Shown here in pieces: positions 7,008-30,651 of a DNA stretch of 32,000 bases (position 1 is its first letter; each line of letters begins with the position of its first letter). The position numbers were made by a program, and so were the translations under genes. A model generated the notes under the pieces. It made no database searches. It had not been told where the DNA came from and saw only the letters and a program-made list of their open reading frames with translations. Source of the stretch: Pseudodesulfovibrio mercurii (GTDB lineage Bacteria; Desulfobacterota; Desulfovibrionia; Desulfovibrionales; Desulfovibrionaceae); NCBI RefSeq assembly GCF_000189295.2, contig NC_016803.1, positions 1,500,001 through 1,532,000 of the forward strand. The letters are read 5' to 3'.

Positions 7008-7231
7008 GTCAGGTCCACCTTGCGTGTTGTCGGGGTTGCGCGCGGGCCGTCCGACCGGCCCCGGCGCGCGGAGTCTTTACCATAATGGGGATCATGCCGG
7101 TAATCCAGACGAAAAGAAGGCCTGCGCGCAAAGCGTGCAAGCCTCCATTTTCATTGTTCTTCATCCCGGAAACAGCCGAGGCCCGAGACCCGGTCCTCGG
7201 ACGGACGGGTCACGGTCCCGGTGCGCTGCTT

Positions 7232-7258
7232 CCGGGGGACGGCCCGAAGGCCCCCCGG
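7232..7258 (-). terminator. GC-rich hairpin at the 3' end of the 13-gene cluster
   Basis: CCGGGGG(acGGCCcgaaGGCC)CCCCCGG lies immediately after the TAG at 7260-7262. There is no clear U-tract. Confidence 0.4.
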
Positions 7259-7259
7259 T

Positions 7260-7589
7260 CTAGCACTTGGACGGCGCCAGGGCGGGCTCGGCGTCCGGGT
7301 CGTAGATCACGTCGCCGTCGTCGGTCACCTGCGGGTTGAGCTCCTCCATGAAGTCCTGGGTCATGCCCGGGACCTTGAGCATGTCCTCGGCGGACTTGAA
7401 GGGACCGTTGGCCTTGCGGTAGTCCACGATGGCCTTGGCCAGCTCCTCGGGGATGTCGATGTCCTCGATGGCCATGAGTTCCTGGACCGAGGCCTTGTTG
7501 AAGCTGACGACGCCGTCCTGGGCAAAGGCGGCGGCCGCGAAGAACAGGCAGGCGGCGGCCAGGGTGATGGAGAGGATGATCTTCTGCAT
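7260..7589 (-). CDS. Small exported ComEA-like helix-hairpin-helix protein (paralog 1), C-terminus ...APSKC
   Basis: Signal peptide MQKIILSITLAAACLFFAAAAFA, then the SFNKASVQELMAI..I..ELAKAIVDYR..NGPF....DMLKVPGM pattern of ComEA-type HhH domains. The start was reset to the ATG at 7589, preceded by AAGGA. Confidence 0.7.
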   Translation of the reverse strand: MQKIILSITLAAACLFFAAAAFAQDGVVSFNKASVQELMAIEDIDIPEELAKAIVDYRKANGPFKSAEDMLKVPGMTQDFMEELNPQVTDDGDVIYDPDAEPALAPSKC

Positions 7590-7670
7590 GTCGTTGTCCT
7601 TGTATGCGTTTTGGGAGCGGGCGAGGCGGTCCGGAGGTTGGGCCGCCCCGCCCATGGGGTTTGGTATCGG

Positions 7671-9110
7671 TTAGCCCGCCTTGATCCGGAAGGTGGTGTT
7701 GTCCGGAGGCGTGACCTTGATTTCCGTGGGCTTCTTGAGCTGCGGCACGTAGTCGTAGGGCACGCGGTAGGCGCGGTAGACCAGGTTGTACTTGCCGTTC
7801 TGGGTGTAGTACGGGCTGATGTATTCCCAGACGATCTCGTGGTCCGGGGTGACTTCCTGGAACTGTCCGACGGCGCCGTTGGTGATCAGCGTGTTGCCGT
7901 TGGGCAGCCGCTGGGCCGAGGACACGTAGTCGGAGTAGAACTGGTACTTGTTGCGCATGCCCATCTGCTTGGCCGAGTGCTCCCAGACCATCTTCAGGGT
8001 GCGCGGGTCGAACTCGATGACGCGGGAGTAGTCGCGGCGGGCGTCGGACCAGCCCACGGGCGCGCCGGGGTTGCGCTTGCCGTAGCCAGCGTAGCCGCCG
8101 TTGTCATAGATCAGGATGTTGCCCTCGCCCGGCAGACCCTTGGGGATCATGTGGGTGTGGTGCTGGCCGATGATCTGTTCGAGCTTGGACAGGGCGCGCT
8201 TGTACTCCTTGCCGCCGAAGGTCCACATGGAATCGCCGTAGAACTCGGGGCCCACCTGCCAGACGACCTTCTTCGTCGCCTTGTCGATGATGAAGCTGGT
8301 GTTGGTCTGGCGGCAGGAGATGATGATGTTGTCCGGGTTGAAGACCGCGTACTTCTCCTTGTCCTCGTCCCACCACTTGTTGGGGCCGAGATAGGAGGCG
8401 GCGTTGACGTGAATCCAGTCGCCGCCCTTGCGGCCCGGAGTGCGGGTCATGGAGAAGGTCGGATACTTGTACATGGTCTTCTTGAAGTCCAGGGGGAAGT
8501 CCATCTCGTCGAAGTGCTCGGAGGCGAGCCAGTCCCAGATGATCTTGCCGTCGGCGTCCACCTCGGCGATGTAGTCGTCGTAGAGTTCCTTGTCGGAGAT
8601 GAACTGGTTGTGGACGAACTTGTGGGACAGGATGAGCATCTTGCCCTTGTAGTTGGCCACCGGCATGCCCGGGACGTGGTAGCCCACGGGGTTGCCCTCG
8701 AACTGGTAGTCGTGGTGCATGCCCGCGCGGGGAATGCTGCGGACCACCTTGTCGTTCCAGTCCACGACCACCAGGTCGGTGGAGTCCGGGTCGTCCCAGA
8801 CGCGGCCCTTCTTGTCCGGGGCCGGGCGCTTGGAGCCCGCCAGGTAGCCGCCCTTGAGCATTTTGGGCGGATGTTCGGCCTGGCAGATGTCCTTCCACTG
8901 CCTGACCACGTTGCCGTTCATATCGATGAGCACGGTGCCCTCGGATTCCACTTCGGTGCCGAAGACCGTGTAGCCGCCCCAGCACTTCTCGGGCTTGTAG
9001 ATGGTCGTACCGTGGGGGAAGACCGTGGGGAAGGACAAGGCCTTCAGGGGATTGACCAGCGTTGCCGCGGTTGCCACGGCTGCACCGGTAAGGAATTCAC
9101 GTCTCTTCAT
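7671..9110 (-). CDS. Arylsulfotransferase (ASST)-family beta-propeller protein, Tat-exported (paralog 2)
   Basis: Twin-arginine signal MKRREFLTGAAVATAA. Recurrent propeller motifs (LPNGNTLITNG, IDMNGNVV, GNILIYDNG) are typical of ASST-family proteins. RBS AAGGAGA. Confidence 0.7.
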   Translation of the reverse strand: MKRREFLTGAAVATAATLVNPLKALSFPTVFPHGTTIYKPEKCWGGYTVFGTEVESEGTVLIDMNGNVVRQWKDICQAEHPPKMLKGGYLAGSKRPAPDKKGRVWDDPDSTDLVVVDWNDKVVRSIPRAGMHHDYQFEGNPVGYHVPGMPVANYKGKMLILSHKFVHNQFISDKELYDDYIAEVDADGKIIWDWLASEHFDEMDFPLDFKKTMYKYPTFSMTRTPGRKGGDWIHVNAASYLGPNKWWDEDKEKYAVFNPDNIIISCRQTNTSFIIDKATKKVVWQVGPEFYGDSMWTFGGKEYKRALSKLEQIIGQHHTHMIPKGLPGEGNILIYDNGGYAGYGKRNPGAPVGWSDARRDYSRVIEFDPRTLKMVWEHSAKQMGMRNKYQFYSDYVSSAQRLPNGNTLITNGAVGQFQEVTPDHEIVWEYISPYYTQNGKYNLVYRAYRVPYDYVPQLKKPTEIKVTPPDNTTFRIKAG

Positions 9111-9166
9111 TATGTACTTTCTCCTTTGTCGCTCGCTTCGTGCGACGCGGATTGAAGTCTGTTGAT

Positions 9167-9190
9167 CCGGGACCGGCCCTCCGGTCCCGG
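9167..9190 (-). promoter_or_regulatory. Perfect 10-bp intercistronic hairpin between the two ASST genes (possible attenuator or mRNA stabiliser)
   Basis: CCGGGACCGG-CCCT-CCGGTCCCGG lies 14 nt downstream of the ASST-1 stop and 57 nt upstream of the ASST-2 start. Confidence 0.35.
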
Positions 9191-9204
9191 GCTGGATGCA
9201 CTCT

Positions 9205-10701
9205 CTAGTAGGCGTTCATGGTCGGACCGTCGCTGCCGTCGTCCTCCGCCGGGGCCTTGGCCGGAGCCTTGGCCGCAGCGGCCGGAGCCGCCGCCGGAGC
9301 ACCGAAACCGGCGCCCTCGTGGTAGTCGCGGAAGAAACGCGGCGCGTCGTCGCCCGCGATGTAGCCCTGCGGGGTCAGGGTCTTGCCGTAGAAGGCCGGG
9401 TAGTCCTCGCCGTAGCGGTAGGCCCGGTGCACCATGTTGGCCATGCCGTCGATGTGGGCCTCGAAGGGCAGACCGTCGATGTTGTGGAACACGGCCTTGG
9501 CCTTGCCAGCGGAGATCGGGTTGACGAATTCCCAGACCAGCCGACCCTCGGGGTTGACCTCGAAGATGTGGCCGCCGTGGGTGGAGGTGATCAGGGTGTT
9601 GCCGTTCTTCAGCCGCTGCACCGCGCCCTGGCGGTGGGAGTTGAAGCTGTTGGTGTGCCGGGTCTTGAACTCCCAGACGATCTTGCCGGTCTTGGGATCG
9701 ACCTCGATGGCGCGGGACCGGCGGTCCTGGGGACGCTCGGAGCCGTTGTCGAAGACGAGCACATGGCCGTTCTTCAGCGGGGTGGCGCAGTGGTTGCCGA
9801 ACATCTGCTGGGAACCGTCATTCCAGTAGCTCGGCTTCTTGGCGGTGGGGTCCCAGGCCGAGGGGTTGCCCCAGCGGTACTCCATCTCGCCGGTCTTGTG
9901 GTTGATGAAGTAGAACTCGGACAGGTTGCGCGAGTTCAGGACCACGGTGTCGGTCTCGGGGATGTAGTTGACGGTGTTGAAGTGGGACCAGTCGTAGGTG
10001 GCGTACATCTCGCCCATGGGCATGGGCAGGGCGTAGTTGATGTCGAACTGCTTGGGCCCCGTGCCGATGTGATCCTTGATGTGCCATTCCCAGACGGTCT
10101 TGCCTTCGGGATTGACCTCGCGGACGAAATCCACCCAGAAACGGTCGTGGGGGATGCCCTTGGACATGACCGGCTTGGTCGGGATGGTCAGGGGATTGCG
10201 GCCCAGCTTGCGGGCCTCGTCATTGGTCAGGGTTTCCCAGCCCAGGATCATGGTGTTGCCGTTGGGCATGCGGCAGAAGGTGTGATGCTGGATTTCCTTG
10301 TTGGGGATGAACATCTTGTATTCCCATACCTTCTTGCCGTCCCAGTCGAACTCTTCCAGGATGCCGGCCGCGCCGCCGATGCCGCAGTAGCCGATTTCCT
10401 TCTTGTACGGCAGAACGCCGCCGCGCAGCAGGTGGCCGTTGGGCAGCAGCACGGAGTGCAGACCGGCGGTGTATTCACTCTGCCACGTGTGCACGATGTT
10501 GCCGCGCATGTCGATGAGATAGGTGGTCTTGCAGGCCACCGTGGGGTCGAACAGGGTGTATCCCTGATAGGCCATGGCCTGATTGTAGTACAGCACACCG
10601 GTGGGCCCGGTGATGGCCTCGTAGGCAAACGCCACCGAACTCAGGACCATCACGGAGATCCCGAACAGAAGCGCCATATGCCAGCGTTGCAGTTTGAGCA
10701 C
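9205..10701 (-). CDS. Arylsulfotransferase (ASST)-family beta-propeller protein with a Sec-type signal peptide and an Ala/Pro-rich C-terminal tail (paralog 1)
   Basis: Motifs LPNGHLLRGG, MPNGNTMILGW, LKNGHVLVFDNG and LKNGNTLITS. The likely start is the GTG at 10701, 5 nt after AAGGAGGA, giving VLKLQRWHMALLFGISVMVLSSVAFA. The tail is GAPAAAPAAAAKAPAKAPAEDDG. Confidence 0.7.
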   Translation of the reverse strand: MLKLQRWHMALLFGISVMVLSSVAFAYEAITGPTGVLYYNQAMAYQGYTLFDPTVACKTTYLIDMRGNIVHTWQSEYTAGLHSVLLPNGHLLRGGVLPYKKEIGYCGIGGAAGILEEFDWDGKKVWEYKMFIPNKEIQHHTFCRMPNGNTMILGWETLTNDEARKLGRNPLTIPTKPVMSKGIPHDRFWVDFVREVNPEGKTVWEWHIKDHIGTGPKQFDINYALPMPMGEMYATYDWSHFNTVNYIPETDTVVLNSRNLSEFYFINHKTGEMEYRWGNPSAWDPTAKKPSYWNDGSQQMFGNHCATPLKNGHVLVFDNGSERPQDRRSRAIEVDPKTGKIVWEFKTRHTNSFNSHRQGAVQRLKNGNTLITSTHGGHIFEVNPEGRLVWEFVNPISAGKAKAVFHNIDGLPFEAHIDGMANMVHRAYRYGEDYPAFYGKTLTPQGYIAGDDAPRFFRDYHEGAGFGAPAAAPAAAAKAPAKAPAEDDGSDGPTMNAY

Positions 10702-10845
10702 TCTTTCCTCCTTACCTGTTACAAATACTGTTGTTGCCACACGAGCCTCCCGCCCGACCCTGCACCGGCCGCGCTCCCTTCCCGGTCACTCTGGCGGGGG
10801 AGGCGGCCGCCCGGCACGGGCCGCGCGGTTGGCAGCATGGACCAA

Positions 10846-10860
10846 CCAAGTTTCATGCCA
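10846..10860 (-). promoter_or_regulatory. Candidate sigma-54 promoter for the ASST operon (weak -12 element)
   Basis: The minus strand reads TGGCAT-GAAAC-TTGG. The -24 element and spacing are correct, but -12 is GG instead of GC. It lies 145 nt upstream of the GTG start and downstream of a sigma-54 activator gene. Confidence 0.3.
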
Positions 10861-10915
10861 CTGTGATAGGCGGAAAAAACATATTGTAATTCAATTGGTT
10901 GTCATCCAGTTGACC

Positions 10916-10973
10916 GTGCGCATGCGCCTCTGTGCATGCGCTCTCACGCACACACTGTGCCGCCCTCCGCACA
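10916..10973. promoter_or_regulatory. Cluster of TGTGC/GCACA inverted repeats, a putative enhancer (UAS) for the adjacent sigma-54 response regulator
   Basis: GCGCATGCGC palindrome (10918-10927), TGTGC-N12-GCACA (10931-10952) and TGTGC-N8-GCACA (10956-10973). The cluster sits 56-127 bp upstream of the candidate -24/-12 element. Confidence 0.35.
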
Positions 10974-11049
10974 GACGGCCCCTCCCCCGGCCGGAGCCGG
11001 AACGGATGGCGGGCGCGGTCCGGGTGAGCTGCGGGACGCCCGGAAACGG

Positions 11050-11079
11050 CAAGGGCCGGTCCGCGAGGACCGGCCCTTG
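11050..11079 (-). terminator. 13-bp perfect hairpin terminating the kinase/regulator pair
   Basis: CAAGGGCCGGTCC-GCGA-GGACCGGCCCTTG lies 23 nt after the regulator stop codon. The flanking T-run is short. Confidence 0.5.
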
Positions 11080-11101
11080 TTTCGCACCCGCGCCACGGGG
11101 C

Positions 11102-12454
<1,353 letters not shown>

Positions 12455-12457
12455 GGC

Positions 12458-14401
12458 TCAGGCCTCCTCGTCGTGGACCGACGGAAATTCCAGGAACATG
12501 CAGGTGCCCCTTCCCGGCTCGGATTCGGCGAAAATCAGACCGTCGTGCCGCTCCACCATGCGGCGGGTGATGAACAACCCCAGGCCGAAGCCGCCCTTGC
12601 GCGACGAGAAGAACGGCTCGAAGATCTGCGTCAGGTTGTGCCGCTCGATGCCCGTGCCGTTGTCGCTGACCTCCAGGCGCACGGTCTCGTCCTCGCCCTC
12701 CCCGGCCCGGCAGGCGCGGATGAGGATGCGCTCGTCCTCGCCCGTCACGGCCAGGGAATTGAAGACCAGGTTCATGAGCACCTGTTGCAGGGCGCGGTCG
12801 TCGCCCCGGATGTACAGGGGCTCGTCGGGCAGGTCCACCTCCACCCGCTCCTGCTTGCGGCGGCTGCCGAGCAGGGACAGGGCGTCGCGGACCAGGGCGC
12901 CGATCTCCACGGTCTCCATGCTCATGGGCTTGGGCGTGGCCGCCTCGAGCAGCCCCTTGGTGATCTCGCCCGCGCGGATGGCGTTGCGCTGGATGGCCAA
13001 CAGGCCGTCCTTGACGTCCGGAACCAGCCCCTCCTCGAACATGAGGTCCTCGGCGTTGGCCTGGATGACGCCCAGGGGGTTGTTGATCTCGTGGGCCAGG
13101 GAGGCGGCCATCTTGCCGATGATGCCGAGGCGCTCGGACTGGATCAGCTCCTCCTCCATGCGGTTGCGCTCGGTCACGTTGCGGGCGAACAGACAGGCCA
13201 GGAGCTGGGTCCGGACCGGACCCTGAATGATCCGCCCGGCCACCTCCACCTCCATGGGGTGGCCCGCGCTCTCGACCATCTGGAACTCGAACTTGTCGCA
13301 GCCGTCGTTGAAGACCTTCTTCAGAAAGGCGTCGATCTCGTCGGCGTATTCGCGGGTGACCAACTGGCGCAGGTTGACCTCGTTCACGGGTCCGGGGAAG
13401 CGCAGGGAGTCGCGGGCGCGCTCGTTGGCGTGGAGCACGCTGCCCTCCTCGTTGACCAGAAAAATCATGTCCGGCGAAGATTCGATGAGGTCTCGGTAAC
13501 GCTGCTCGGTGCGGCGCAGGTCCTGGGTCACCCGGTCCACGCGCCGCTTGAGGGAGACGTTCCAGACCACGATGGCGACGAAGATGACCCCGGCCACGCC
13601 CGAGCCCACGGCCACGTACTTGGCGTAGTGGCGGAGGTCGTCGGTGATGGTCGGCTTGCCGAACCACTTGTCGCGCAGCTGGGCGGCCATGCCGCTCTCC
13701 CGCAGGTGGCGGAAGGCCTCCCGGATATCCTCGGCCAGCGCGGGCCGGCTCCGGGGCACGATGATGCCCAGGGGGCTCTCGCCGAGAACCACGCCCTTCT
13801 TGAGGATGTTCGGGATCTGGTAGCGGTCGATGAGGTCGTCGGCCACGCGCTCGGACGGGGCCACGAACACGTCCATGACCCCCTGGCTGACCATGTTCAG
13901 GGCCTCCATGGGCGAACTCAGCCAGACCACGTCCTCGGGCAGGTTGATCTCGGCGCTGTAGGGCGCGGAGGTGATGGCCACGACCTTCTTGCTGGCGAGG
14001 TCGCGCAGGCAGGTCACCGAGCGGCAGCTCTCGTTGACGTAGAGGTGGTGGCGCAGGCTGATGCCCACGGGAATCCAGATGGCGTCCAGTTCGTCGGCGG
14101 TCTCCTGCGAGTCGTGGGCCAGGATGTCCACCGAGCCGTTCAGGAAAAGCTCCCGCCGCTTGCCCAGGTCGTGGATGGGCCGGAACTCCATGTCCGCGCC
14201 CATGATCCTGCCCAGCATGACCATCTCGTCCACGGAGTAGCCGCGCACGCCCTGCTTGCCCTCCTTGACGGCCAGGAAGGAGAACGGCGGGGACAGGGCC
14301 CGCGTGCCCACGTGGTAAACCGGCCGCGCCAGGGCCCGCCCATGCGCCAGGACCGGGAGGAACCCGAGGCAGAGGATGAGGATAAGGACGGCGCGGCGCA
14401 T
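12458..14401 (-). CDS. Sensor histidine kinase with a periplasmic solute-binding (SBP family 3-like) domain, TM, PAS, HisKA and HATPase
   Basis: Signal/TM MRRAVLILILCLGFLPVLA, then an amino-acid-binding-protein-like domain of about 230 aa, a TM helix, PAS (YRDLIESSPDMIFLVNEEG), H-box SLAHEINNPL and N/G boxes (NLVFNS, DNGTGI, GFGLGL). The stop TGA is 3 nt before the regulator ATG, with GAGGAGG present. The start was reset to the ATG at 14401. Confidence 0.85.
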   Translation of the reverse strand: MRRAVLILILCLGFLPVLAHGRALARPVYHVGTRALSPPFSFLAVKEGKQGVRGYSVDEMVMLGRIMGADMEFRPIHDLGKRRELFLNGSVDILAHDSQETADELDAIWIPVGISLRHHLYVNESCRSVTCLRDLASKKVVAITSAPYSAEINLPEDVVWLSSPMEALNMVSQGVMDVFVAPSERVADDLIDRYQIPNILKKGVVLGESPLGIIVPRSRPALAEDIREAFRHLRESGMAAQLRDKWFGKPTITDDLRHYAKYVAVGSGVAGVIFVAIVVWNVSLKRRVDRVTQDLRRTEQRYRDLIESSPDMIFLVNEEGSVLHANERARDSLRFPGPVNEVNLRQLVTREYADEIDAFLKKVFNDGCDKFEFQMVESAGHPMEVEVAGRIIQGPVRTQLLACLFARNVTERNRMEEELIQSERLGIIGKMAASLAHEINNPLGVIQANAEDLMFEEGLVPDVKDGLLAIQRNAIRAGEITKGLLEAATPKPMSMETVEIGALVRDALSLLGSRRKQERVEVDLPDEPLYIRGDDRALQQVLMNLVFNSLAVTGEDERILIRACRAGEGEDETVRLEVSDNGTGIERHNLTQIFEPFFSSRKGGFGLGLFITRRMVERHDGLIFAESEPGRGTCMFLEFPSVHDEEA

Positions 14402-14554
14402 GATCGCCAGCCTAGCGCAAAGCGGGCCGTCGCGCCACCGCCGAAGCGGCGGGGCCGAAAAACGCCGACGTCCCCCGGCAGGAGGGATGCCGGGGGAGTA
14501 CGGTGAGAGGAGGTGGACAATGCGTCGGTTCAACGCTTTTCTCCGGGAACGTCG

Positions 14555-15250
14555 TTATGGCACGGCGCCGATGAGGACCGCCTTGTAGCCCTTGCCGATA
14601 TCGTTGCGGGCGTCCGAGTGGACCAGGATCATGTCCAGGAACCGGCCCGGTTCGAGCCCGTCCAGGGTCAGGGCGATGGCCGCCGACTGCCCGGCGGGCA
14701 CGGTCAGTTCGCCCTGCCAGTACGTCTTCCTGAACTTCTGCGACTCGACCTTCGTGACCAGCATGGGGGCGTCGCCCGCGTTGCGCACGGTCAGTGTCAC
14801 GGCATTGGCCTTGCCCGCCGCCAGGGTCCCCAGGTCCACCTTGCGCGGGTTGACCTCCATGACCCCCATGGGCACGGGTTCGACGTAGCCCACGATGTGG
14901 ATGACCTGGGCGTCCTCCTTGCCCTTGCCGGTGAACACGGTGACGGTTTTGTCGAACTTGCCTGGATATTTGAACGTGTTGTAGTTGATGATCATTTCCG
15001 TGGCTTCGCCGGGTTCGAGGCTGCTCTTCCCGAGAGCAGTGCTGGTGCAGCTTCAGGACGTGGTCACGTTCTCGATGGTCAGCGCCCGGTCGCCCGTATT
15101 GGTCAGGGTGATCGTCTGGCGGGCCACCGGCCCCTCGGTCATGGCCCCGAAGTCCACGGTGGTCTGGCTGACGGACAGGGGTCCGGCCCAGGCTCCGGCC
15201 GCCAGGCAGGCGACCAGGGCGCAGGCCAGGGCAATGGATCTGAAACGCAT
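14555..15250 (-). CDS. Exported DUF1573-family protein with in-frame UGA (15053-15055) read as selenocysteine; 231 aa, motif TS-U-S-C-T
   Basis: ORFs 15053..15250 and 14555..14995 share a frame. Only the TGA and 19 sense codons lie between them. Read-through restores a complete DUF1573 domain with the TGA at the first Cys of the conserved SCGCT motif. A SECIS-like hairpin follows. RBS AAGGAG precedes the ATG at 15250, and the signal peptide is MRFRSIALACALVACLAAGAWA. Confidence 0.7.
15021..15039 (-). other. Putative bacterial SECIS hairpin
   Basis: On the mRNA: UGA, 13 nt, then CUGCUCU-CGGGA-AGAGCAG (7-bp stem, 5-nt loop containing G). The loop starts 20 nt after the UGA, inside the 16-37 nt range I recall for bacterial SECIS elements. 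Confidence 0.5.
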
Positions 15251-15260
15251 TGTCGGCTCC

Positions 15261-15722
15261 TTATTGTTCCCCGTGCACGAAACGGGATTTGACCTTGTAG
15301 TCGAAGTTCTTGTCCTGGCCCTCGGTGTGGCAAGTGCGGCACAGGGCCTCGTCGGGCCTGGCGACGATGTCGGCCGGGTCCTGCGACGCCACGTGCTTCC
15401 GGCCGGGGCCGTGGCAGTTCTCGCACTGCACGTCCTTGAGTTCCGGGGTCAGGTCCATGTCGATGAACCCGCCGTCCGCGTCCATGGCCACCACGTGGCA
15501 GCGCACGCAGCCGGGCACCGACTGCTTCTCCTCGCCCTGCTGCTTCAAATCCTCGAAGGCGTTGGCGTGGGGGGTGGTCTTCCATCCCTTGACCACGTCG
15601 GCGTGGCACTCCTCGCAGGCGGTGTAGCCCACGTAGTCGCCGAACAGTTCGGCATGGGCCGCGGCCGCCGCCAGGGAGAGGAGGAAGCAGGCGACGGCCA
15701 CGATCAGCAGAAGGCGGTTCAT
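15261..15722 (-). CDS. Periplasmic tetrahaem c-type cytochrome
   Basis: Signal peptide plus four CxxCH motifs (CEECH, CVRCH, CENCH, CRTCH) in 153 aa. The stop lies 10 nt before the DUF1573 start. Confidence 0.88.
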   Translation of the reverse strand: MNRLLLIVAVACFLLSLAAAAAHAELFGDYVGYTACEECHADVVKGWKTTPHANAFEDLKQQGEEKQSVPGCVRCHVVAMDADGGFIDMDLTPELKDVQCENCHGPGRKHVASQDPADIVARPDEALCRTCHTEGQDKNFDYKVKSRFVHGEQ

Positions 15723-15735
15723 GGCGTTCTCCCGG

Positions 15736-16032
15736 CTAGCAGTTGCAGTCCGATGCGGGCTCTATGTAGATGACCTTCTCGAGCTTCCTGAGCAGGGCGT
15801 TGTCCACGCCGTCGATGTCGAGCAGCTCGGACATGTCCACGAACTCCCCGTTCTCCGTGCGGGCCTTGACGATCTCCTCGGCCAGTTCGTGGCTGATGCC
15901 GTCGATGGCCTCCAGCTGTTCCACGGTGGCCACGTTGAGGTTGAGCTTGCCGCTGTTGTCCGCGGCGAAGGATGCCTGCGCGGACAGGGCCAGGGCCAGG
16001 ACGAACGCCAGGATGAGGCAGATCTTTTTCAT
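15736..16032 (-). CDS. Small exported ComEA-like helix-hairpin-helix protein (paralog 2), C-terminus ...SDCNC
   Basis: Signal peptide MKKICLILAFVLALALSAQA, then LNLNVATVEQLEAIDGISHELAEEIVKAR..NGEF....ELLDIDGV. RBS AAGGAG. Confidence 0.7.
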   Translation of the reverse strand: MKKICLILAFVLALALSAQASFAADNSGKLNLNVATVEQLEAIDGISHELAEEIVKARTENGEFVDMSELLDIDGVDNALLRKLEKVIYIEPASDCNC

Positions 16033-16051
16033 GTTCGATACTCCTTTGAAT

Positions 16052-16255
16052 TTACCAGCCGAGATAGTGATGGCTGTACATGAAGAACCAGGCCACGCAG
16101 GAGAGGACTCCGCTGGCGATGCCGGAAACGGTTTTGCGGAAGGTCGAGGCCGTGTCGCGGCCCGCCTTGAACACGCCCAGGTACAAGGCCGCCGTGGTCA
16201 GCAGGACCAGCAGGACCGCGAACAGGGGCAGGATGACGTAGTAGATGCCGTGCAT
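16052..16255 (-). CDS. 67-aa two-TM membrane protein of unknown function
   Basis: Two hydrophobic helices (YYVILPLFAVLLVLLTTAALYLGV; IASGVLSCVAWFFMY). AGGAGGAG lies 3 nt upstream and the gene is tightly packed in the operon. Confidence 0.5.
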   Translation of the reverse strand: MHGIYYVILPLFAVLLVLLTTAALYLGVFKAGRDTASTFRKTVSGIASGVLSCVAWFFMYSHHYLGW

Positions 16256-16264
16256 GATCTCCTC

Positions 16265-16417
16265 CTAGAGCAGGCCCAGGTACTGGCTGACGGTGACGAC
16301 GGCCATGACTGCCAGGGCGAAGACGATGCCCAGGGTGTCCCTGTCCTGTTCCTCCACGCCCTGGTTGGCCATGAAGTCGAAGCCGGTTTCGTCGGTGGTG
16401 TGCGGATGTCTGTTCAT
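16265..16417 (-). CDS. 50-aa single-TM protein, absent from the supplied ORF track
   Basis: Hand translation gives MNRHPHTTDETGFDFMANQGVEEQDRDTLGIVFALAVMAVVTVSQYLGLL. TAGGAGGA lies 3-4 nt upstream of the ATG at 16417. The ORF fills an otherwise empty gap in the operon. Confidence 0.45.
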   Translation of the reverse strand: MNRHPHTTDETGFDFMANQGVEEQDRDTLGIVFALAVMAVVTVSQYLGLL

Positions 16418-16427
16418 GTCAATCCTC

Positions 16428-17588
16428 CTAGGCCGCGAACAGGCCGGTCTTGACGCAGATGACGAGGGCCGCGAGGAGCAGGGCGATGCGCAGGAGCCCG
16501 GCGGCCAGGGTGACCAGGACCCCCTTGAGGCCGTGCTGCGTGATCTCGCGGAAGGACACGGACAGGCCGAGCGCGGCCGCGGCCAGGGAGAAGTCCCACT
16601 TGACCATGGCGAAGATGGCGTGGTGGGCGGGCTCCTTGAACAGGTGCAGGCAGGCCAGGGCCCACAGGAAGACGAACACGCCGAGCCACAGCGGGAAGGT
16701 CTTGATGCCGCGCGTGGCCATGACCGTCTCGTCGTCGCGGCGGCGCAGCTTGCGCACGAACATGACGATGAAGACGTACAGGAAGCCCGCGGGCATGATG
16801 ACGTGGCGGCCCACGTCGAACCAGGTGGCCCAGCGGCCCGCCTCGTAGCTCGACCCGAAGGCCGCGAACAGGGCCTGGGCCCCGTTGCCCACGCCGACCA
16901 CCGAGGCCAGGCCCAGGGCCTGCGGGGTCAGTCCGACCCACTCCCCGAGCACGGGCAGCAGGTACATGGAGACCAGCCCGAAGCCGATGACGCAGGCCGT
17001 TGCGTGGACCACCTGGCCGCCCTTGGCCTTGATCAGCGGCATGAGGATGGCGCAGGCGTGGGGGTCGCCCGTGGCCAGGCCGCCCGCGATGATGGACCCG
17101 TGGCGGTCGTCGAGCCTGAACAGCTTCGCAATCCACAGGGTCAGGGTCGCGGTCAGGAACAGGGAGGCCGTGCAGATCAGGATCGGGGCAGCGCCGAGCT
17201 TTAAGGCGTGGCCGAGCATAAAGTGCGGGGCGAGCATGATGATGCCCAGCGGCATGAGCATGTGGATGTAGGACAGGCCGCGTTTCCAGGAGTCCGGCAC
17301 GCCGAAGACGTTGCCGATGATCAGGCCGACGAGCAGCGGGTTCCAGACGAAGTTGGAGTTCAGGACCTGGAAGAGGGACTGGTGGTGCACCGGACCGATG
17401 ACCCCGTCCAGCCAGGCGAACAGGTTTTGCAGGGTGAACGGGTTGGGCACCCCGGCCAGGTTGTTGCTGAAGATGGCGATGAAGAACATCGCCAGCAGTC
17501 CGGGCAGGACCGCCTTCAGGTCATACAGTGCGCTGAACCAGGATTTGCGGCCCAGCTCGTAGTGTATTGCCATGCTTTGGGTATTCAT
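16428..17588 (-). CDS. Polytopic inner-membrane transporter (about 10-11 TM), possibly a distant YeiH/UPF0324 (putative sulfate exporter) family member
   Basis: 386 aa and hydrophobic throughout. The LLVGLIIGNVFG...LMPLGIIMLA layout resembles YeiH, but the GxxSICG region is not conserved (GGLATGDPHACAIL). RBS GAGGAAAA. Confidence 0.5.
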   Translation of the reverse strand: MNTQSMAIHYELGRKSWFSALYDLKAVLPGLLAMFFIAIFSNNLAGVPNPFTLQNLFAWLDGVIGPVHHQSLFQVLNSNFVWNPLLVGLIIGNVFGVPDSWKRGLSYIHMLMPLGIIMLAPHFMLGHALKLGAAPILICTASLFLTATLTLWIAKLFRLDDRHGSIIAGGLATGDPHACAILMPLIKAKGGQVVHATACVIGFGLVSMYLLPVLGEWVGLTPQALGLASVVGVGNGAQALFAAFGSSYEAGRWATWFDVGRHVIMPAGFLYVFIVMFVRKLRRRDDETVMATRGIKTFPLWLGVFVFLWALACLHLFKEPAHHAIFAMVKWDFSLAAAALGLSVSFREITQHGLKGVLVTLAAGLLRIALLLAALVICVKTGLFAA

Positions 17589-17615
17589 TGCTTTTCCTCG
17601 TGATGTCTTGGGCCG

Positions 17616-20522
17616 CTAGCGGCGGATGTGGGCGGAACCGCCGGTGTTGACCGAGCCGCTGACCTTTTCGCTCGGGGCCTTGGAGCCCACGCGCCAGTGG
17701 TCCATGAAGCCCAGGCGCGGGAGCATGGACAGCCTCAGGAAGCCCTCGATGGTCCCGTTGACCCCGACCAGCACGTCCACGTTGTTGCGCGGGCGGAAGG
17801 CCAGGTTGTCGGTCTTCTCGACCTCGTCCCCGGACCCGGTCTCGATGTGCCAGGCCATGACCATCTCGCCGTCGAAGCTGTCCAGGACCAGACGGAACAG
17901 AGGCTCGCCCTTCTCATTCTTCGGCCCCTCGTACACGGGGTGCTCACGGTCCAGGACAATGGCCTCGGGGTTGTCGAGCAGGACCTCGTTGAGCTGGTAG
18001 CAGTGGCCGCACACGTCCGGGCGGACCATGAAGCGCGGGTCGAACTCGAACGGCGTGTCGCGCTCCAGCTCCTGGATGCCGGTATACAGCCAGAGGTTGG
18101 CCCTGCCGTCCTTGAACGGGGTCTCCAGGTCCATCTCGGCCAGGACCGAGCCGACCTTGAACTGCATCATCCGGGCGGTGTCCTGGTGCTGGGGCAGGAG
18201 CTTGCGGGTCTCGGCGTTGAGCGGGCCCACGGTCTTTTCGGCGACCACCTTGCCCGCCTTGTCCAGCAGGGACAGACCGATGGTCCCGGCCTGTTCGTCC
18301 AGGCCGTCGCAGCGCAGCACGTATCCGCCGAGCTTGGCCGTGTCGCCCGCGCCCAGGGCCTTTTCGCCGGGCTTCCTGTAGGTGTAGCTGATGCTCTGCA
18401 GGGAAGGGGTGCCGAACTCCCTGATCTTGACGTAGTTGGAGCCGATGTACTCGGGCTGGATGTAGGTCGCGCCCTCGGAGAAGAGGTCGGGCATGAAGTA
18501 GCGGTCATGGGCCGACTTGTCCTCGCTGAACCCCTGGGCCAGGTAGAAGTGCGCGCCCCAGCGGTTGCCGGAGTACTTCATCAGCGAGAGCGAGGCCACG
18601 GGCCGGTCGTCCAGGTAGGACATGCCGGTGTAGCGCAGCGCCTTGTTGCGCACGCCGAGCAGCTCGTCCTGCCAGTACATCAGGTTGCCGTCGCCCATGG
18701 GCTGGTTCTTCCAGAAGTCCAGGTCAAAGTCCTTGCGCACGTAGGTCCCGGAGGAGAACGTGGTCAGGTAGGCCCGCCTGCCGAGCAGGAAGAAGCTTTC
18801 GCCCGCCAGGGTGCGGATGTTGCGCGCGTTGCGCGAGGTGTAGCACAGCCCGGCCGGGGGAATGACCACGCGGTTGTTGCGGTAGTCCACGTAGGACCCG
18901 CGGACCACGATGGCCTCGGCGGACAGGAGCCGCTCGCCCTTGCGGTTGCGCGAGACCTTGCGCATGAGCCCCTTGAGCCGGGGCACGAAGGGCGCGGTGT
19001 GGTCGGGCTCGTAGAACGAGGCGTCGGGGATGACCTTGGGATAGGAGGTGAACCTGGACTCCTCGACCACGGTGCCGTAGGACGAATCCGCCAGCCGGGT
19101 CAGGAAGGAGCGTTCGATGATCGGTTCGAGCACGGGCGAGGAGCCGAGGAAGAAGTCGAGGTTGTTCTTCCCTTCCCCGGGCCACATGACCATGTTGTCC
19201 GTGCGCATGAAGTAGTAGTCGCGGACGTAGAGGTCGCGGACCACGCCCCCGTCCAGGCCGCCCGCGACCACCTTGAAGGCCGGGCGGTTCCAGACGTCCG
19301 AGTACTTGACCGGGCCGTCGAAGGCGTCGTGGTCCTTGTCGAAGACCACGGGCTGGTTGTTTTCGAGCAGCAGACGGTGGAGCATGCCGGTCTTGAGGTT
19401 GGGCTCCAGGACCACGTTGTAGCGCTTGTCCAGGGGCCAGGGCTGACCGTTCTTGACCGTGACCAGGTCGCGGTAGACGACGAAGGAGAAGTTGCCCGAG
19501 GAGTAGCCGTGGGCCTTGCCCGTGGACCAGGGCACGAAGTCCGAGTCCTTGAGGAAGGCCGGGTCGATGACGATCTCCACGCGCATGTCCAGCTCCGGCA
19601 CGGTCAGCTGGTACTTGTCCAGTTCGGCCGGGCGGGTCTTGTACTCCTGGGCCGTGGTCGGCTTGACCAGCTTCTCGGCCAGGACCTCGCTGCCGGTGAA
19701 GTTGGTGATCCGGACCAGGAAGCCGTCGGGCCGCCGGAAGGCGTAGATGCGCTTGTTGAAATAGTAGCGATAGTCCTCCTGGCGCACCTCGAGGATGACC
19801 GGGCGCTGCATGGAGAAGGTCGCCTCGGTGATCTCCGGGAACTCGATGGACGCGAACTCGGCGGTGTCGAAGTCCACGTCGCGGGCCACGTACTTGCTGG
19901 CCCCGAAGTAGTAGGTGTTGTCCAGGTAGAACTTTTCGAGCTGCGGGTTGAGCCCTTCCTGCAGATGGATGTCCCGGACCTCCTCGCGCCTGGGGAAGCG
20001 CGTGGCGATGGGAAATTCCAGGGGGAAGCCGCCGGACGGCGAGATGACCGCGAACTCGGCGTAGGGCACGTCGTAGTGGTCCGTGGAATAGTCGAACCAC
20101 AGCCGGTAGCCGGAGTCGCCCAGGGGCGTGCGGTCGCCCTTGTTCAGGGCCACGTCGCGGTAGGTCCGCGTGGCGGTCTTGAGGTCCACCAGGTAGGTGT
20201 GCTCGCCCAGGACCAGGAACGGGTCGCGCAGGAGCGGCCGGGCGTCGTGGGAGGTCTCGGACAGGTAGAACAGCCCGCCGGCCGGGACCGTGGCCGCGCC
20301 GTCGGCGATCTCGCTGCCGCGCAGGACGATGGCCTCGGTCAGGCTCTTTTTCTGTCCGAGCTGGTTCTTGTAGACCTTGTTGCGCAACCCCGCCAGGTGC
20401 GGCAGGAAGGTCATGTCCGCCGACGGCGACAGGCCGTGCGGATCGGTTGCGGCCGCCCCCGCGCCCGGCAGGGCGAGGAGCAGGACCAGGGCAAGGGCCA
20501 GTAGTCTGAATGTGTGTTGCAT
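17616..20522 (-). CDS. 968-aa exported protein made of two homologous modules of about 470 aa each; no family recognised
   Basis: Signal peptide MQHTFRLLALALVLLLALPGAGAAA. Residues 39-112 align with 512-586 (F.P.L.GL..KV..N..G....AIV.RGS....PAGL.Y.S....F.LG...YL). The module ends also align (MVMW..NLDFFLG against MVMAW..NVDVLVG). A single CGHC motif lies at 18000-18011. Confidence 0.85.
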   Translation of the reverse strand: MQHTFRLLALALVLLLALPGAGAAATDPHGLSPSADMTFLPHLAGLRNKVYKNQLGQKKSLTEAIVLRGSEIADGAATVPAGGLFYLSETSHDARPLLRDPFLVLGEHTYLVDLKTATRTYRDVALNKGDRTPLGDSGYRLWFDYSTDHYDVPYAEFAVISPSGGFPLEFPIATRFPRREEVRDIHLQEGLNPQLEKFYLDNTYYFGASKYVARDVDFDTAEFASIEFPEITEATFSMQRPVILEVRQEDYRYYFNKRIYAFRRPDGFLVRITNFTGSEVLAEKLVKPTTAQEYKTRPAELDKYQLTVPELDMRVEIVIDPAFLKDSDFVPWSTGKAHGYSSGNFSFVVYRDLVTVKNGQPWPLDKRYNVVLEPNLKTGMLHRLLLENNQPVVFDKDHDAFDGPVKYSDVWNRPAFKVVAGGLDGGVVRDLYVRDYYFMRTDNMVMWPGEGKNNLDFFLGSSPVLEPIIERSFLTRLADSSYGTVVEESRFTSYPKVIPDASFYEPDHTAPFVPRLKGLMRKVSRNRKGERLLSAEAIVVRGSYVDYRNNRVVIPPAGLCYTSRNARNIRTLAGESFFLLGRRAYLTTFSSGTYVRKDFDLDFWKNQPMGDGNLMYWQDELLGVRNKALRYTGMSYLDDRPVASLSLMKYSGNRWGAHFYLAQGFSEDKSAHDRYFMPDLFSEGATYIQPEYIGSNYVKIREFGTPSLQSISYTYRKPGEKALGAGDTAKLGGYVLRCDGLDEQAGTIGLSLLDKAGKVVAEKTVGPLNAETRKLLPQHQDTARMMQFKVGSVLAEMDLETPFKDGRANLWLYTGIQELERDTPFEFDPRFMVRPDVCGHCYQLNEVLLDNPEAIVLDREHPVYEGPKNEKGEPLFRLVLDSFDGEMVMAWHIETGSGDEVEKTDNLAFRPRNNVDVLVGVNGTIEGFLRLSMLPRLGFMDHWRVGSKAPSEKVSGSVNTGGSAHIRR

Positions 20523-20581: not shown

Positions 20582-20596
20582 ACAAGAAGCGTACCA
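20582..20596 (-). promoter_or_regulatory. Weak sigma-54-like element upstream of the 968-aa gene
   Basis: The minus strand reads TGGTAC-GCTTC-TTGT. Spacing is correct but -12 is GT instead of GC. It lies 60-75 nt upstream of the ATG at 20522 and 76-93 bp downstream of the 18-bp palindrome. Confidence 0.2.
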
Positions 20597-20671: not shown

Positions 20672-20689
20672 TGTGCGGCATGCCGCACA
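20672..20689. promoter_or_regulatory. Perfect 18-bp palindrome TGTGCGGCA|TGCCGCACA, a putative regulator binding site
   Basis: The sequence is exactly self-complementary. It has the same TGTGC-N8-GCACA architecture as 10956-10973. It lies in an AT-rich divergent control region. Confidence 0.4.
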
Positions 20690-20890
20690 GTAAAATCACG
20701 AGTGTGCGTGCGCGCGAACACTCGGAAAGCGCCCTCCTCCACCGGACAGGACCGGCGCCGATGCGAACCCCCCTGTCGCACACCACGGACTGACAATTCT
20801 GTAGTTAATTAATTTCAAATTTGTACGTAAATGCACAAAATGTCGTCGGCGCAGTTTTGACAACATATTGAAATTATGGGAGTTAGCCGT

Positions 20891-22477: not shown

Positions 22478-23254
22478 CTACTGCTCCTTCTTGAAGACGA
22501 TCAGCGGGCAGTTCTTGCACACGTCCGCGCCGGGGAAGCCGTCGCCGGGCCGGGTGATGGAGCTGCTGCCCGCCTTGATGCGCGTCATGAGCCGGTCGAA
22601 GACCGCACCGAACTGGACGCCGGGGATGATCACGTTGATCTCGCCGCGCTCGGTCTTACCCGCGTTGTAGCTGCCCGAGCAGGCCGGGAGCATGTTGAAC
22701 TCGCGGGCCAGGTAGGAGTGCACGTTGCCGCCGCAGGCCGAGGAGTTCATGGTGATGGTCGAGTGCAGGGGGTGGGTGTCCGTGGCCGCCATGTAGTCCA
22801 CGGCCAGGTGGTAGGCCTGCATGTTGTCGCAGTAGAAGTGCACGGTGTCGGGCTCGTACAGGCCGTCCACCGCGCCCAGCGGGGCCACGGCGATGCCGAG
22901 CAGCCCCTGGGGCAGCCGGGCCTTGGAGCGCACGAACCGCTCGGCCTGGTCCAGGTCCCTGGTGTACTTGGCGTGGCCCTTGATCTCGCCCTCGTCCAGC
23001 TCCTTCCAGCCGAAGCCGTAGCGCGCGTTGCCGCAGCCCAGCCCGGCCTCGCCCGAATAGACGATCTGGCCCTTCATGCGCGCCCCGATCTCCCACTGAC
23101 AGAAGGTCATGGCCTTGACCGGGGTGTAGATCTCCGGCGCGGCCGCGTGGAAGGCGTCCAGCTCGGCCTGGTCGAAGAAGAATTTGACCGCCACGGGGTA
23201 GTGATAGAGCCGTAGCTCGCGCATGAGGATTTCCTGCATTTCCCTGTACGACAT
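22478..23254 (-). CDS. DUF169 (COG2043) domain protein
   Basis: YHYPVAVKFFFD.....MTFCQWEIGARMKG...... and overall size fit DUF169. The start was reset to the ATG at 23254, preceded by AAGGAG. Confidence 0.75.
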   Translation of the reverse strand: MSYREMQEILMRELRLYHYPVAVKFFFDQAELDAFHAAAPEIYTPVKAMTFCQWEIGARMKGQIVYSGEAGLGCGNARYGFGWKELDEGEIKGHAKYTRDLDQAERFVRSKARLPQGLLGIAVAPLGAVDGLYEPDTVHFYCDNMQAYHLAVDYMAATDTHPLHSTITMNSSACGGNVHSYLAREFNMLPACSGSYNAGKTERGEINVIIPGVQFGAVFDRLMTRIKAGSSSITRPGDGFPGADVCKNCPLIVFKKEQ

Positions 23255-23532
23255 GATGGTACTCCTTTCGGATTGATGGTTGTGCACGATGCCGGAACGA
23301 ACGGAATCCGGACCGGCGTCCTCCCGCTATGCCCCGGCAGGACCGGGGGTCAAGGGGAGGGCCCGTCGTGAAATTCCGCGCGCTGCATTATGCTGAATCA
23401 AGCACGATGTCGGCTTCGAAGGGACAAGTGTTGCGCCGTTTTTTCACAAGCGGCAAGGAGGTCACGGAAACGGGGCGGTTGCGGTCCTTCCCGGCCGGGC
23501 CGGATCGCGGGGGATGCGGAGAGGGGTTGGCG

Positions 23533-29995: not shown

Positions 29996-30088
29996 CGATA
30001 CTCCTCCACAGGTTGAAATCCTTCTGCCGGACCGGACCCGCCGGGTCCGTGCCGTAGGCGGTCCGCCTCGCCCCCTTCGGGAGGCGGA

Positions 30089-30517: not shown

Positions 30518-30543
30518 TGTTTCCTTCCGTCGGCACCCCCTTG

Positions 30544-30560: not shown

Positions 30561-30583
30561 GACGGCGGCGGGCAGCAACATCT

Positions 30584-30596: not shown

Positions 30597-30651
30597 TATA
30601 TGTAATTTATTTTCCGTTGTGCGGCTTTGGACAGACTTTCGGCCCGATTCA

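Follow-up and report, generated by a model that had tools for sequence, protein, structure and literature searches.

Described systems closest to the cluster

Bacterial aryl sulfotransferases that work independently of 3'-phosphoadenosine 5'-phosphosulfate (PAPS) have found wide use as biocatalysts. What they accept in nature and what they do for the cell are poorly understood (2026 review, PMC13426309), and in Sutterella the genes for these aryl-sulfate sulfotransferases (ASSTs) are mostly isolated rather than part of operons, according to a gene-neighbourhood study (PMC10932419). In Pseudodesulfovibrio mercurii ND132, twelve genes on the minus strand (positions 7260-20522 of the window, i.e. 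the whole stretch of 32,000 nucleotides that was analysed, positions 1,500,001 to 1,532,000 of NC_016803.1) tie two types of ASST genetically, in a constant association, to candidate protein acceptors (carrying C-terminal Cys or Tyr arms), and the same association takes in a redox module, a transporter and a sensor/regulator pair. It seems possible, with a probability of roughly 45%, that these genes are a single sigma-54 regulon encoding a periplasmic sulfuryl relay that is coupled to a two-electron redox module.

The active site of the E. coli ASST comprises His436 (which is transiently sulfurylated), His252, His356, Asn358, Arg374 and Thr501, and phenolic Tyr, including Tyr within peptides, is a known acceptor of the classical enzymes (PMC13426309). 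Like the assT-dsbL-dsbI locus of E. coli CFT073, the cluster encodes periplasmic six-bladed propellers of the ASST type with a His / His-x-Asn / Arg / His constellation, in a neighbourhood that is rich in thiol proteins. It differs in that DsbA- and DsbB-like genes are missing and that the propellers have no conserved disulfide; they also lack the N-terminal beta-sandwich of the E. coli enzyme (479-511 aa versus 598 aa), and are similar in size to Cpz4. Moreover, there are two paralogue types, one of them with a C-terminal Tyr tail, which are genetically linked to carriers, cytochrome or molybdenum (Mo) reductases, a 968-aa exported protein (G968), a permease and sigma-54 control.

The Sox system (SoxYZ, SoxAX, SoxB) resembles the cluster in having a periplasmic carrier with a Cys at the end of a C-terminal arm and a c-type cytochrome as partner, and its Cys-S-sulfonate chemistry is the intermediate proposed for the cluster, some relatives of which have metallophosphoesterases (the superfamily of SoxB) as accessory proteins. 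This resemblance is in logic only, as the candidate carriers have a helix-hairpin-helix (HhH, ComEA-like) fold and end in PSKC or C-x-C instead of the GGCGG of SoxY, their loading would be an ASST-type sulfuryl transfer, and homologues of SoxA, SoxX, SoxB or SoxCD were not found in the window. The PsrABC/Sud and PhsABC systems are resembled most by a second subgroup of relatives (subgroup 2), which have a Mo-bis(pyranopterin guanine dinucleotide) protein exported by twin-arginine translocation (Tat), a 4Fe-4S subunit, an NrfD or cytochrome b anchor, a small periplasmic Cys protein inside the operon and occasionally a rhodanese. In contrast to Psr and Phs, the window has a tetrahaem cytochrome and a DUF1573 protein with a selenocysteine/Cys-x-Cys motif in place of the Mo enzyme, and the Mo subunit of the related clusters scores under all curated cut-offs. 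We know of no association of Psr or Phs with ASSTs and the 968-aa protein.

For G968 itself, the best fold match is MA0829 of Methanosarcina acetivorans (tandem DUF1608, PDB 3U2G), likewise an exported all-beta protein with a tandem duplication. There is no detectable sequence similarity between the two, however, the modules of G968 are larger (~470 aa versus ~270 aa), its host is a bacterial diderm, and it combines an invariant CGHC motif with a permease as its obligatory partner. Compared with S-layer proteins its conservation is extreme (65% identity across orders). Finally, if the proposed mechanism is right, the cluster would, like the adenosine 5'-phosphosulfate (APS) reductase / Sat route, turn an activated sulfuryl group into sulfite for DsrAB; that route is cytoplasmic and costs ATP, whereas the one proposed here would be periplasmic and powered by the bond energy of the aryl-sulfate ester.

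Organisation and conservation of the cluster

Gene calls were made from the open reading frame (ORF) listing and translation, and families were assigned with Pfam and NCBIfam scans. The genes and control elements are as follows.

20672-20720: two TGTGCG-N6-CGCACA palindromes (one perfect), putative enhancer upstream of G968
20583-20596, minus strand: sigma-54-type -24/-12 element TGGTACGCTTCTTG before G968
17616-20522, minus strand: G968, 968-aa exported protein without a match among Pfam or NCBIfam models
16428-17588, minus strand: polytopic permease, PF03601 (YeiH / UPF0324, 'putative sulfate exporter family')
16265-16417, minus strand: 50-aa protein with an acidic N-terminus and a single C-terminal transmembrane (TM) helix
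16052-16255, minus strand: 67-aa membrane protein with two TM helices
15736-16032, minus strand: exported HHH_3 (ComEA-like) protein of class B, ending in SDCNC-COOH (PF12836, E = 4e-16)
15261-15722, minus strand: exported tetrahaem cytochrome c with four CxxCH motifs (Cytochrome_C554, E = 1e-18)
14555-15250, minus strand: DUF1573 selenoprotein, exported, with two domains and a U-S-C motif (read-through product matches PF07610, E = 6e-30)
12458-14533, minus strand: sensor histidine kinase with periplasmic SBP_bac_3, PAS and HisKA/HATPase domains; probable start ATG 14401
11102-12454, minus strand: response regulator / sigma-54 enhancer-binding protein, REC-AAA+-HTH_8 (Sigma54_activat, E = 1e-69)
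11051-11078, minus strand: GC-rich hairpin directly 3' of the regulator gene, probable terminator, read from the sequence
10935-10973: two TGTGCG-N6-CGCACA palindromes (1 and 2 mismatches), putative enhancer upstream of ASST-1
10847-10860, minus strand: sigma-54-type -24/-12 element TGGCATGAAACTTG before ASST-1, from a relaxed pattern scan
9205-10740, minus strand: ASST-1, Sec-exported ASST-like propeller (PF05935, 93.9 bits); probable start GTG 10701
7671-9110, minus strand: ASST-2, ASST-like propeller with an RREFL Tat motif (PF05935, 90.2 bits)
7260-7655, minus strand: exported HHH_3 protein of class A, with an acidic tail leading to DPDAEPALAPSKC-COOH (PF12836, E = 1e-15); probable start ATG 7589

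The starts given for the kinase, ASST-1 and the class A HhH protein are probably the true ones, internal to their ORFs. Exact look-ups identified the genes as DND132_1355 to DND132_1366 (n = 12; ASST-2 is 100% identical to DND132_1356, and G968 is DND132_1366). An earlier sequence-only reading of this DNA had counted thirteen, although its own list names twelve; the genes, products and Cys or selenocysteine motifs that it placed on the minus strand agree with the ORFs, translations and Pfam/NCBIfam matches. The gaps between the genes are 3-30 nt, as it had stated for most of them, except those between regulator and ASST-1 (~360-400 nt) and between ASST-1 and ASST-2 (94 nt). Public annotation describes the products as hypothetical, ComEA family, aryl-sulfate sulfotransferase and putative sulfate exporter. 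A divergent TrmO gene forms the upstream boundary of the cluster, while downstream there are hairpins (~7100-7257), followed by a YbaL/KefB-like gene, which does not accompany the cluster elsewhere.

One genome per species was scanned for G968 homologues, which yielded 75 loci, the neighbourhoods of which were analysed by tblastn and by clustering of all ORFs (some loci lack full 10-kb flanks). The loci are found in Desulfovibrionales (including gut Mailhella), Desulfobacterales, Desulfarculales, Syntrophales, Desulfatiglandales and Syntrophorhabdales, and furthermore in Acidobacteriota, Methylomirabilota and Tectomicrobia. Nearly all hosts are Desulfobacterota or other anaerobes. The permease gene lies directly 3' of G968 in nearly all 75 loci, and the families co-cluster in 73 sources (the window counted). 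ASST-like genes are present in 58 loci overall and in 40 of the 40 loci with full 10-kb flanks, HhH genes in 70 loci (125 copies), the regulator in 40, the kinase in 30 and the 67-aa two-TM protein in 38; in subgroup 2 a small protein analogous to the 50-aa protein comes after the permease. Reciprocal look-ups from distant ASST-2 homologues reach the same type of cluster.

The ASST/regulator block varies in place and orientation (downstream, upstream-divergent or upstream-tandem) and yet remains linked, which is a signature of selection for linkage. The cluster is a conserved unit, in an arrangement that goes far beyond chance. The terminator-like hairpin and the separate promoter do split the region into two transcription units, which might suggest that two or three operons (a transporter with an unknown protein, three redox genes, a two-component system and the ASST operon) merely came to lie side by side. 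As the association survives rearrangement in 75 genomes from several phyla, and the two units share an upstream enhancer motif, in the window as in many relatives, such a coincidence is extremely unlikely. The earlier expectation of one functional unit, to be checked by synteny, was in this respect borne out, with linkage kept across orders and phyla and a shared enhancer motif.

Two loci of the sample call for a comment of their own. L031, from a metagenome-assembled genome labelled Anaerovoracaceae and the sole Firmicutes-labelled locus, matches L035 (Desulfatiglandales) in gene order and in the identities to the window proteins; its contig is therefore probably mis-binned, in which case the cluster may be absent from Firmicutes. 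On a long-read metagenome contig (L076, 3721-5877) a G968 homologue and one ASST gene are broken into short ORFs, which probably reflects assembly frameshift errors rather than pseudogenes.

Two operons with one enhancer motif

Both -24/-12 elements, before ASST-1 and before G968, are preceded by two copies of the palindrome TGTGCG-N6-CGCACA. The window has eight matches to this palindrome versus 2.3 expected, four of which are those at the two promoters. The G968 promoter and its palindromes are conserved in four related genomes (L001-L004), and a -24/-12 element is located 25-130 nt upstream of G968 in 13 related loci. With one mismatch allowed, the related loci (1.36 Mb) contain 55 palindromes, compared to ~3 expected by chance (a rough estimate of our own), and 45 of these 55 lie at most 400 nt upstream of cluster genes, i.e. 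G968 (23), ASST (14), kinase/regulator (7) and the accessory p165 gene (1). Together with an enhancer-binding protein that has a Sigma54_activat domain, the -24/-12 elements and upstream palindromes are the features of a sigma-54 regulon, and the two operons have one enhancer motif in common, which the encoded enhancer-binding protein presumably reads.

The -12 element reads TTG-G or TTG-T, not TTGC; the exact TGGC-N7-TTGC pattern missed both promoters, which were located with a relaxed -24/-12 pattern. A simple consensus terminator scan gave no more matches than shuffles and missed the hairpin after the regulator gene, because of its weak T-tract. A terminator and an enhancer before ASST-1 had been read from the sequence earlier, and this hairpin (a probable terminator), the enhancer-like palindromes and the -24/-12 element are indeed in place. 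The cluster genes are not mentioned in the literature searched on Desulfovibrio sigma-54 regulons, on sulfate transporters of sulfate reducers or on ND132 RNA-seq.

Two propellers of the ASST superfamily

The two propellers could have turned out to belong to another family, but this is not the case. Their PF05935 scores of 90-94 bits compare with a cut-off of 24.2, and PF14269 gives 56.6 (ASST-1) and 58 bits (ASST-2) at a cut-off of 27. For the AlphaFold2 (AF2) model of ASST-2 (mean predicted local distance difference test, pLDDT, 90), the top eight Foldseek matches in the PDB are Cpz4 (9KF4/9KF6, E ~2e-14, TM-score 0.54-0.57) and E. coli ASST (3ELQ, 3ETS, 3ETT, 4P04, 4P07), other propellers ranking at least 100-fold weaker. 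PDB sequence searches with ASST-1 and ASST-2 returned Cpz4 weakly or designed propellers and nothing else. The GQHH of ASST-2 aligns to WQHD in Cpz4, the two entries of which differ by surface mutations only and hence do not identify the catalytic residue.

Among 104 ASSTs of the clusters, the HH, D-W-x-H-x-N, R and G-x-H motifs are conserved at 96-100%. In ASST-1 the conserved residues are HH152/153, H253-x-N255, R271 and H317, with the same H-to-R spacing of 18 as in the E. coli enzyme, and in ASST-2 H132, H133, H234, N236, R267 and H317 are invariant. Both propellers are members of the ASST superfamily that have kept the His / His-x-Asn / Arg / His constellation, and the motifs and their spacing suggest that these residues are equivalent to the catalytic ones of E. 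coli ASST. Retention of the full constellation argues for real sulfuryl-histidine chemistry. No protein of the cluster is better conserved than ASST-2 (76-82% identity across orders).

A C-terminal Tyr is present in 31 of the 104 cluster ASSTs. ASST-1 ends in an Ala/Pro linker, an acidic run and DGPTMNAY-COOH; among 120 clusters of ASST-1 homologues 46 end in Tyr, 43 of them with a tail of the type acidic-run-G-P-x-M-x-[AS]-Y ([TA]-M-x-[AS]-Y). The same ending is found in the Tyr class of HhH proteins described below.

A Tat motif occurs in only 23 of 52 ASST-2 family members, the remainder having Sec-type signals. A Tat-dependent cofactor in ASST-2 was considered and rejected, since signals that are half Tat and half Sec do not imply a cytoplasmic cofactor. 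Regardless of the type of signal, the mature N-terminus of ASST-2-type proteins, FP[TS]V[FY]PHGTTIYKPEKC, is nearly invariant right after the cleavage site.

By analogy with E. coli, the thiol proteins of the cluster had been proposed to be dedicated redox partners of the propellers, in which case DUF1573, cytochrome c and HhH-CxC would be a folding or redox-maintenance set of the DsbL/DsbI kind. There is a precedent in the assT-dsbL-dsbI operon (mentioned in PMC10932419 and PMC13426309), and thiol/selenol motifs do recur across the cluster. However, ASST-2-type proteins have no Cys column that is conserved at 60% or more, while ASST-1-type proteins have two such columns (~75%), at both of which the ASST-1 of the window has Ala. 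In addition, about half of the ASST-2-type proteins are exported by Tat and half by Sec, thioredoxin-fold or DsbB-like hits were not obtained among the cluster proteins, the HhH-CxC protein sits inside Mo-reductase operons in other lineages, and the pair of 968-aa protein and permease is left unexplained. A role as folding set is thus very unlikely, and the analogy does not hold; instead, these proteins follow the redox and ASST modules in the manner of partners or substrates.

HhH proteins and their terminal nucleophiles

The HhH proteins fall into classes according to their last residues, among them class A with [AS]PSKC after an acidic tail and class B with C-[NT]-C, each of these ends (PSKC and C-[NT]-C) being strictly conserved. 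The C-terminal residue is Cys in 92 of 98 HhH proteins and Tyr in the other six (PGMKSY, APVY, LPRY), which are mostly from Mailhella and are clear class A paralogues, in tandem with class A. Classes A and B have different neighbours: an ASST gene is immediately upstream of class A in 31 of 40 cases, whereas class B genes are next to those for cytochrome c (16), FeS (9), Mo (9) and NrfD (10) proteins, with the order Mo > HhH(CTC) > FeS in nine loci.

Both in class A HhH proteins and in the ASST tails, the terminal nucleophile is carried on an acidic tail that is probably flexible. The interchange of Cys and Tyr at the extreme C-terminus favours a nucleophilic acceptor/donor arm and speaks against a persulfide carrier or a site for metals; that the terminal Cys or C-x-C binds a metal is accordingly disfavoured. 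A thiolate at the position equivalent to Tyr would yield S-sulfocysteine.

Redox module

The DUF1573 gene has an in-frame UGA at 15053-15055, and in this column 13 of 28 orthologues have TGA while 15 have TGT or TGC. The alignment with Cys codons identifies the UGA as a genuine selenocysteine codon, as the sequence-only reading had it, in an organism that is reported to encode the selenocysteine machinery (preprint 10.1101/2022.07.06.499078). The resulting selenocysteine/Cys-x-Cys motif is of the same kind as the C-x-C end of class B HhH proteins. Aryl-sulfate-type or selenium/sulfur substrates had been offered as an alternative for the whole set; the aryl-sulfate type of sulfur fits better than the folding set, and the role of selenium looks catalytic and facultative, not that of a substrate, in view of the 13 TGA and 15 Cys codons. 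A hairpin at 15021-15039 (7-bp stem, 5-nt loop containing G) starts 13 nt past the UGA, a suitable spacing for a selenocysteine insertion sequence (SECIS), and folds no more stably than shuffled sequences do (z = -0.15); Rfam gave zero matches over the whole window and the selenocysteine region, including its SECIS families. ARAGORN called a tRNA-Gly(ccc) at 14998-15065 (plus strand), which was rejected, being antisense inside the conserved DUF1573 coding sequence and without an Rfam tRNA match; it is almost certainly a false positive arising from the hairpin-rich putative SECIS region of the gene. To the OS_HP2 (seleno)protein family NF041425 the DUF1573 protein is related without being a member (57.1 bits, below the cut-off of 100), and NF041198, a UshA-like selenoprotein, has a C-terminal haem domain to which the cytochrome c matches (2e-35). 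The cytochrome gene comes after that for HhH-CxC in 16 loci.

Relatives with a G968 identity of 44-50% differ in their components: 24 loci encode a molybdopterin oxidoreductase exported by Tat, accompanied by a 4Fe-4S subunit and an anchor of the NrfD (15 loci) or cytochrome b561 type (8 loci), and there are also a USP-like protein (30 loci) and a 165-aa exported protein (19 loci). A Mo reductase of the Psr, Phs or Ttr type is thus absent from the window and present in these 24 related loci, and some loci hold both the Mo module and the cytochrome/DUF1573 trio. The Mo subunit has its best partial matches with Fdh-alpha, NasC and PhsA, each below the NCBIfam cut-off. These features are hallmarks of a periplasmic module of the terminal-reductase type that is tied to HhH-CxC.

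Accessory genes of subgroup 2 (~6-8 kb upstream of G968 in L032, L039, L043, L044, L050, L060, L062 and L067; at 11734-13116 and 19312-19863 in L077) encode a Tat-exported protein of the alkaline-phosphatase superfamily (PF01663, ~695 aa) and a metallophosphoesterase/PhoD-like protein (~460 aa, 6 loci). In L077 they include a rhodanese gene that immediately precedes that of the Mo subunit. Such phosphatase, phosphoesterase and rhodanese genes are compatible with ester or thiosulfonate chemistry.

The Psr/Phs-like layout of the Mo/FeS/NrfD or cytochrome b module, with HhH-CxC encoded within that operon, the adjoining rhodanese gene and the partial PhsA match also suit a different explanation, i.e. 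a respiratory system that uses polysulfide, thiosulfate or sulfane sulfur, or else an analogue of it for selenium. In that case the HhH-Cys proteins would be Sud-like carriers of Cys-bound sulfur and the Mo enzyme or cytochrome/DUF1573 the reductase, while the ASST-like propellers would have been recruited for some other transfer or binding, and the conserved acidic C-terminal tails would dock the whole set onto the 968-aa scaffold. The S-layer-type fold of G968 suits a scaffold, and its surface conservation is very high. On the other hand, the ASST catalytic constellation is retained throughout the 104 ASST-like proteins (96-100%), the C-terminal Cys interchanges with Tyr, which is unable to carry sulfane sulfur, and ASST genes belong to the cluster everywhere, which does not hold for the Mo module. 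This kind of respiration is therefore considered unlikely.

The 968-aa protein and its permease

G968 homologues form ~200 clusters among 5.8 billion proteins, all near 970 aa, and an exhaustive profile search found 166 clusters in 1.8 billion representatives; across the 75 genomes the identity is 44-93%. Single-module relatives (380-560 aa; P0264-P0301 and similar) match mostly profile positions 500-920, and no Pfam domain was found in them. The two halves of G968 align with 22% identity over 467 aa (E = 8e-28), so the duplication noted earlier is real, as is the CGHC motif: PDVCGHCY occurs in the second half only, and C838, H840 and C841 are invariant among 79 homologues. The C-terminus (GGSAHIRR) is conserved as well.

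A structure prediction, which had been suggested as a check, gave an all-beta AF2 model with two similar halves (pLDDT 88, pTM 0.86). Its best PDB fold by Foldseek is 3U2G, the Methanosarcina S-layer DUF1608 domain (probability 1.0, E = 5e-6), with a low TM-score because only one module aligns. According to the model, G968 is a tandem DUF1608-like all-beta fold. PF07752 (DUF1608) does not match the G968 of the window, a single homologue having a precomputed PF07752 match, and searching the PDB sequences with the G968 profile returned nothing. The UniRef name 'LPS-assembly protein LptD' was rejected for G968, as neither Pfam nor NCBIfam nor the fold supports it.

The permease matches PF03601 with 102.6 bits (cut-off 24.5), compared to 47.8 bits for TIGR00698 at a cut-off of 232.6, which places it in a divergent branch of the YeiH family. 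Since it is the obligatory neighbour of G968, the latter may well be the periplasmic partner or platform of the transporter.

Proposed sulfuryl relay and its direction

From the genetics, the family assignments and the conservation of motifs we infer every chemical step of the relay. The ASST-1-type enzyme would take the sulfuryl group from a small aryl sulfate onto its catalytic His, from where it would go on to a protein-borne C-terminal Tyr arm (giving Tyr-O-sulfate), after which ASST-2 would hand it to the C-terminal Cys of the HhH-PSKC carrier (giving S-sulfocysteine). HhH-CxC and the selenocysteine/Cys-x-Cys DUF1573 protein would cleave the S-SO3 bond reductively to free sulfite and be re-reduced by the tetrahaem cytochrome, while in other lineages the thiosulfate-reductase-like Mo enzyme would perform this cleavage; cleavage of R-S-SO3 would be the reaction type of thiosulfate reduction. 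G968 and the YeiH-like permease would carry the sulfur oxyanion across the inner membrane and thereby supply dissimilatory sulfite reduction, on a route that would bypass the ATP-dependent activation of sulfate. The solute-binding domain of the kinase would sense the substrate and turn on both operons. That sulfate- and sulfite-reducing anaerobes actually respire the sulfuryl group of aryl sulfates in this way, via Tyr-O-sulfate, Cys-S-sulfonate on HhH carriers, sulfite uptake and ATP-free activation, is a more doubtful proposition than the relay as such, and the direction of flow, towards the release of sulfite, is a proposal.

Several points weigh against the relay as drawn. Reduction of an S-sulfonate by menaquinol via an NrfD complex would be an endergonic reaction, like that of thiosulfate reductase, and the hosts Smithella, Methylomirabilota and Tectomicrobia are not known as sulfite reducers. 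Mailhella loci lack the cytochrome/DUF1573 pair and mostly the Mo enzyme too, and the Mo subunit, to judge from its scores, fits no NCBIfam family, the nearest being of the Fdh/Nas/Phs types. According to its annotation, the YeiH family exports rather than imports. The proposed equivalence with the E. coli ASST residues comes from motif spacing rather than superposition, the sulfation of Tyr and Cys ends is deduced from genetics and ASST chemistry only, and the acidic tails might be peptides that dock to the 968-aa protein instead of acceptors.

Reverse flow, in which sulfite and a disulfide give an S-sulfonate and finally an aryl sulfate, would be thermodynamically easier, and with the same parts it would amount to PAPS-independent sulfation, and hence detoxification, of phenols. 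The permease would export sulfite, sulfitolysis of an oxidised C-x-C/Cys carrier would form S-sulfocysteine, and the ASSTs would pass the sulfuryl group via their Tyr arms to phenolic toxins, while the cytochrome or the Mo/NrfD complex would re-oxidise the carrier thiols, with electrons going to cytochrome or the quinone pool. Chemically this is equally smooth as forward flow. The oxidation of sulfite towards quinone is exergonic, and in the Sox system the Cys in the C-terminal arm of SoxY receives a sulfur oxyanion oxidatively from the cytochrome c SoxAX. PF03601 relatives are annotated as putative sulfate/sulfite exporters, many hosts degrade or meet phenolics (Desulfatiglans, Syntrophorhabdales, NaphS2 and gut Mailhella), and the role usually guessed at for ASSTs is detoxification (PMC13426309). 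Nevertheless, a selenocysteine in the C-x-C motif and an adjacent rhodanese are more typical of reductive S-S chemistry, and the export of sulfite by the permease is an assumption. The characterised periplasm-facing Tat Mo/FeS/NrfD complexes are, to our knowledge, terminal reductases, and the sulfite-oxidising SoeABC faces the cytoplasm. Reverse flow is the main alternative to the reductive relay, albeit an improbable one.

Implications

A description of the cluster, of the C-terminal classes of HhH proteins, of ASST Tyr tails or of the 968-aa family was not found in the literature searched, in line with the initial impression of an unrecognised combination. It is an undescribed kind of system, made partly from known enzyme families, and the question of the role of ASSTs becomes testable in P. 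mercurii ND132, which is genetically tractable. If the reductive relay is true, it would be the first defined physiological pathway for bacterial ASSTs, and would add a new kind of carrier protein and two protein modifications new to bacteria. Sulfidogens, including gut Mailhella with its four or five ASST paralogues, could then tap aryl sulfates of host or plant origin, which would bear on the production of H2S and on what becomes of sulfated drugs and toxins. Irrespective of mechanism, the cluster defines a 968-aa family that Pfam does not cover and whose fold is of the type seen in an archaeal S-layer, a novel way of using the HhH domain and a genuine DUF1573 selenoprotein with facultative selenocysteine/Cys.

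Flanking genes

The upstream flank contains genes for a tandem-USP protein (23587-24453), a DUF169 protein (22478-23287) and a PEP-utilising (PPDK_N) enzyme (25721-28312), all on the minus strand, none of which is kept beside the cluster elsewhere. At the start of a USP-family gene (30089-30652, minus strand) there is a further, third element of the sigma-54 type, TGGCACCGCCCTTG (30546-30559), and as no TGTGCG-N6-CGCACA palindrome is near it, a different activator is likely. This gene is followed by one of the TauE/SafE sulfite-exporter family (29066-29995, minus strand), and the resulting pair of USP and TauE/SafE sulfur-oxyanion transporter (29066-30652) echoes the pairing of YeiH and USP in subgroup-2 clusters.

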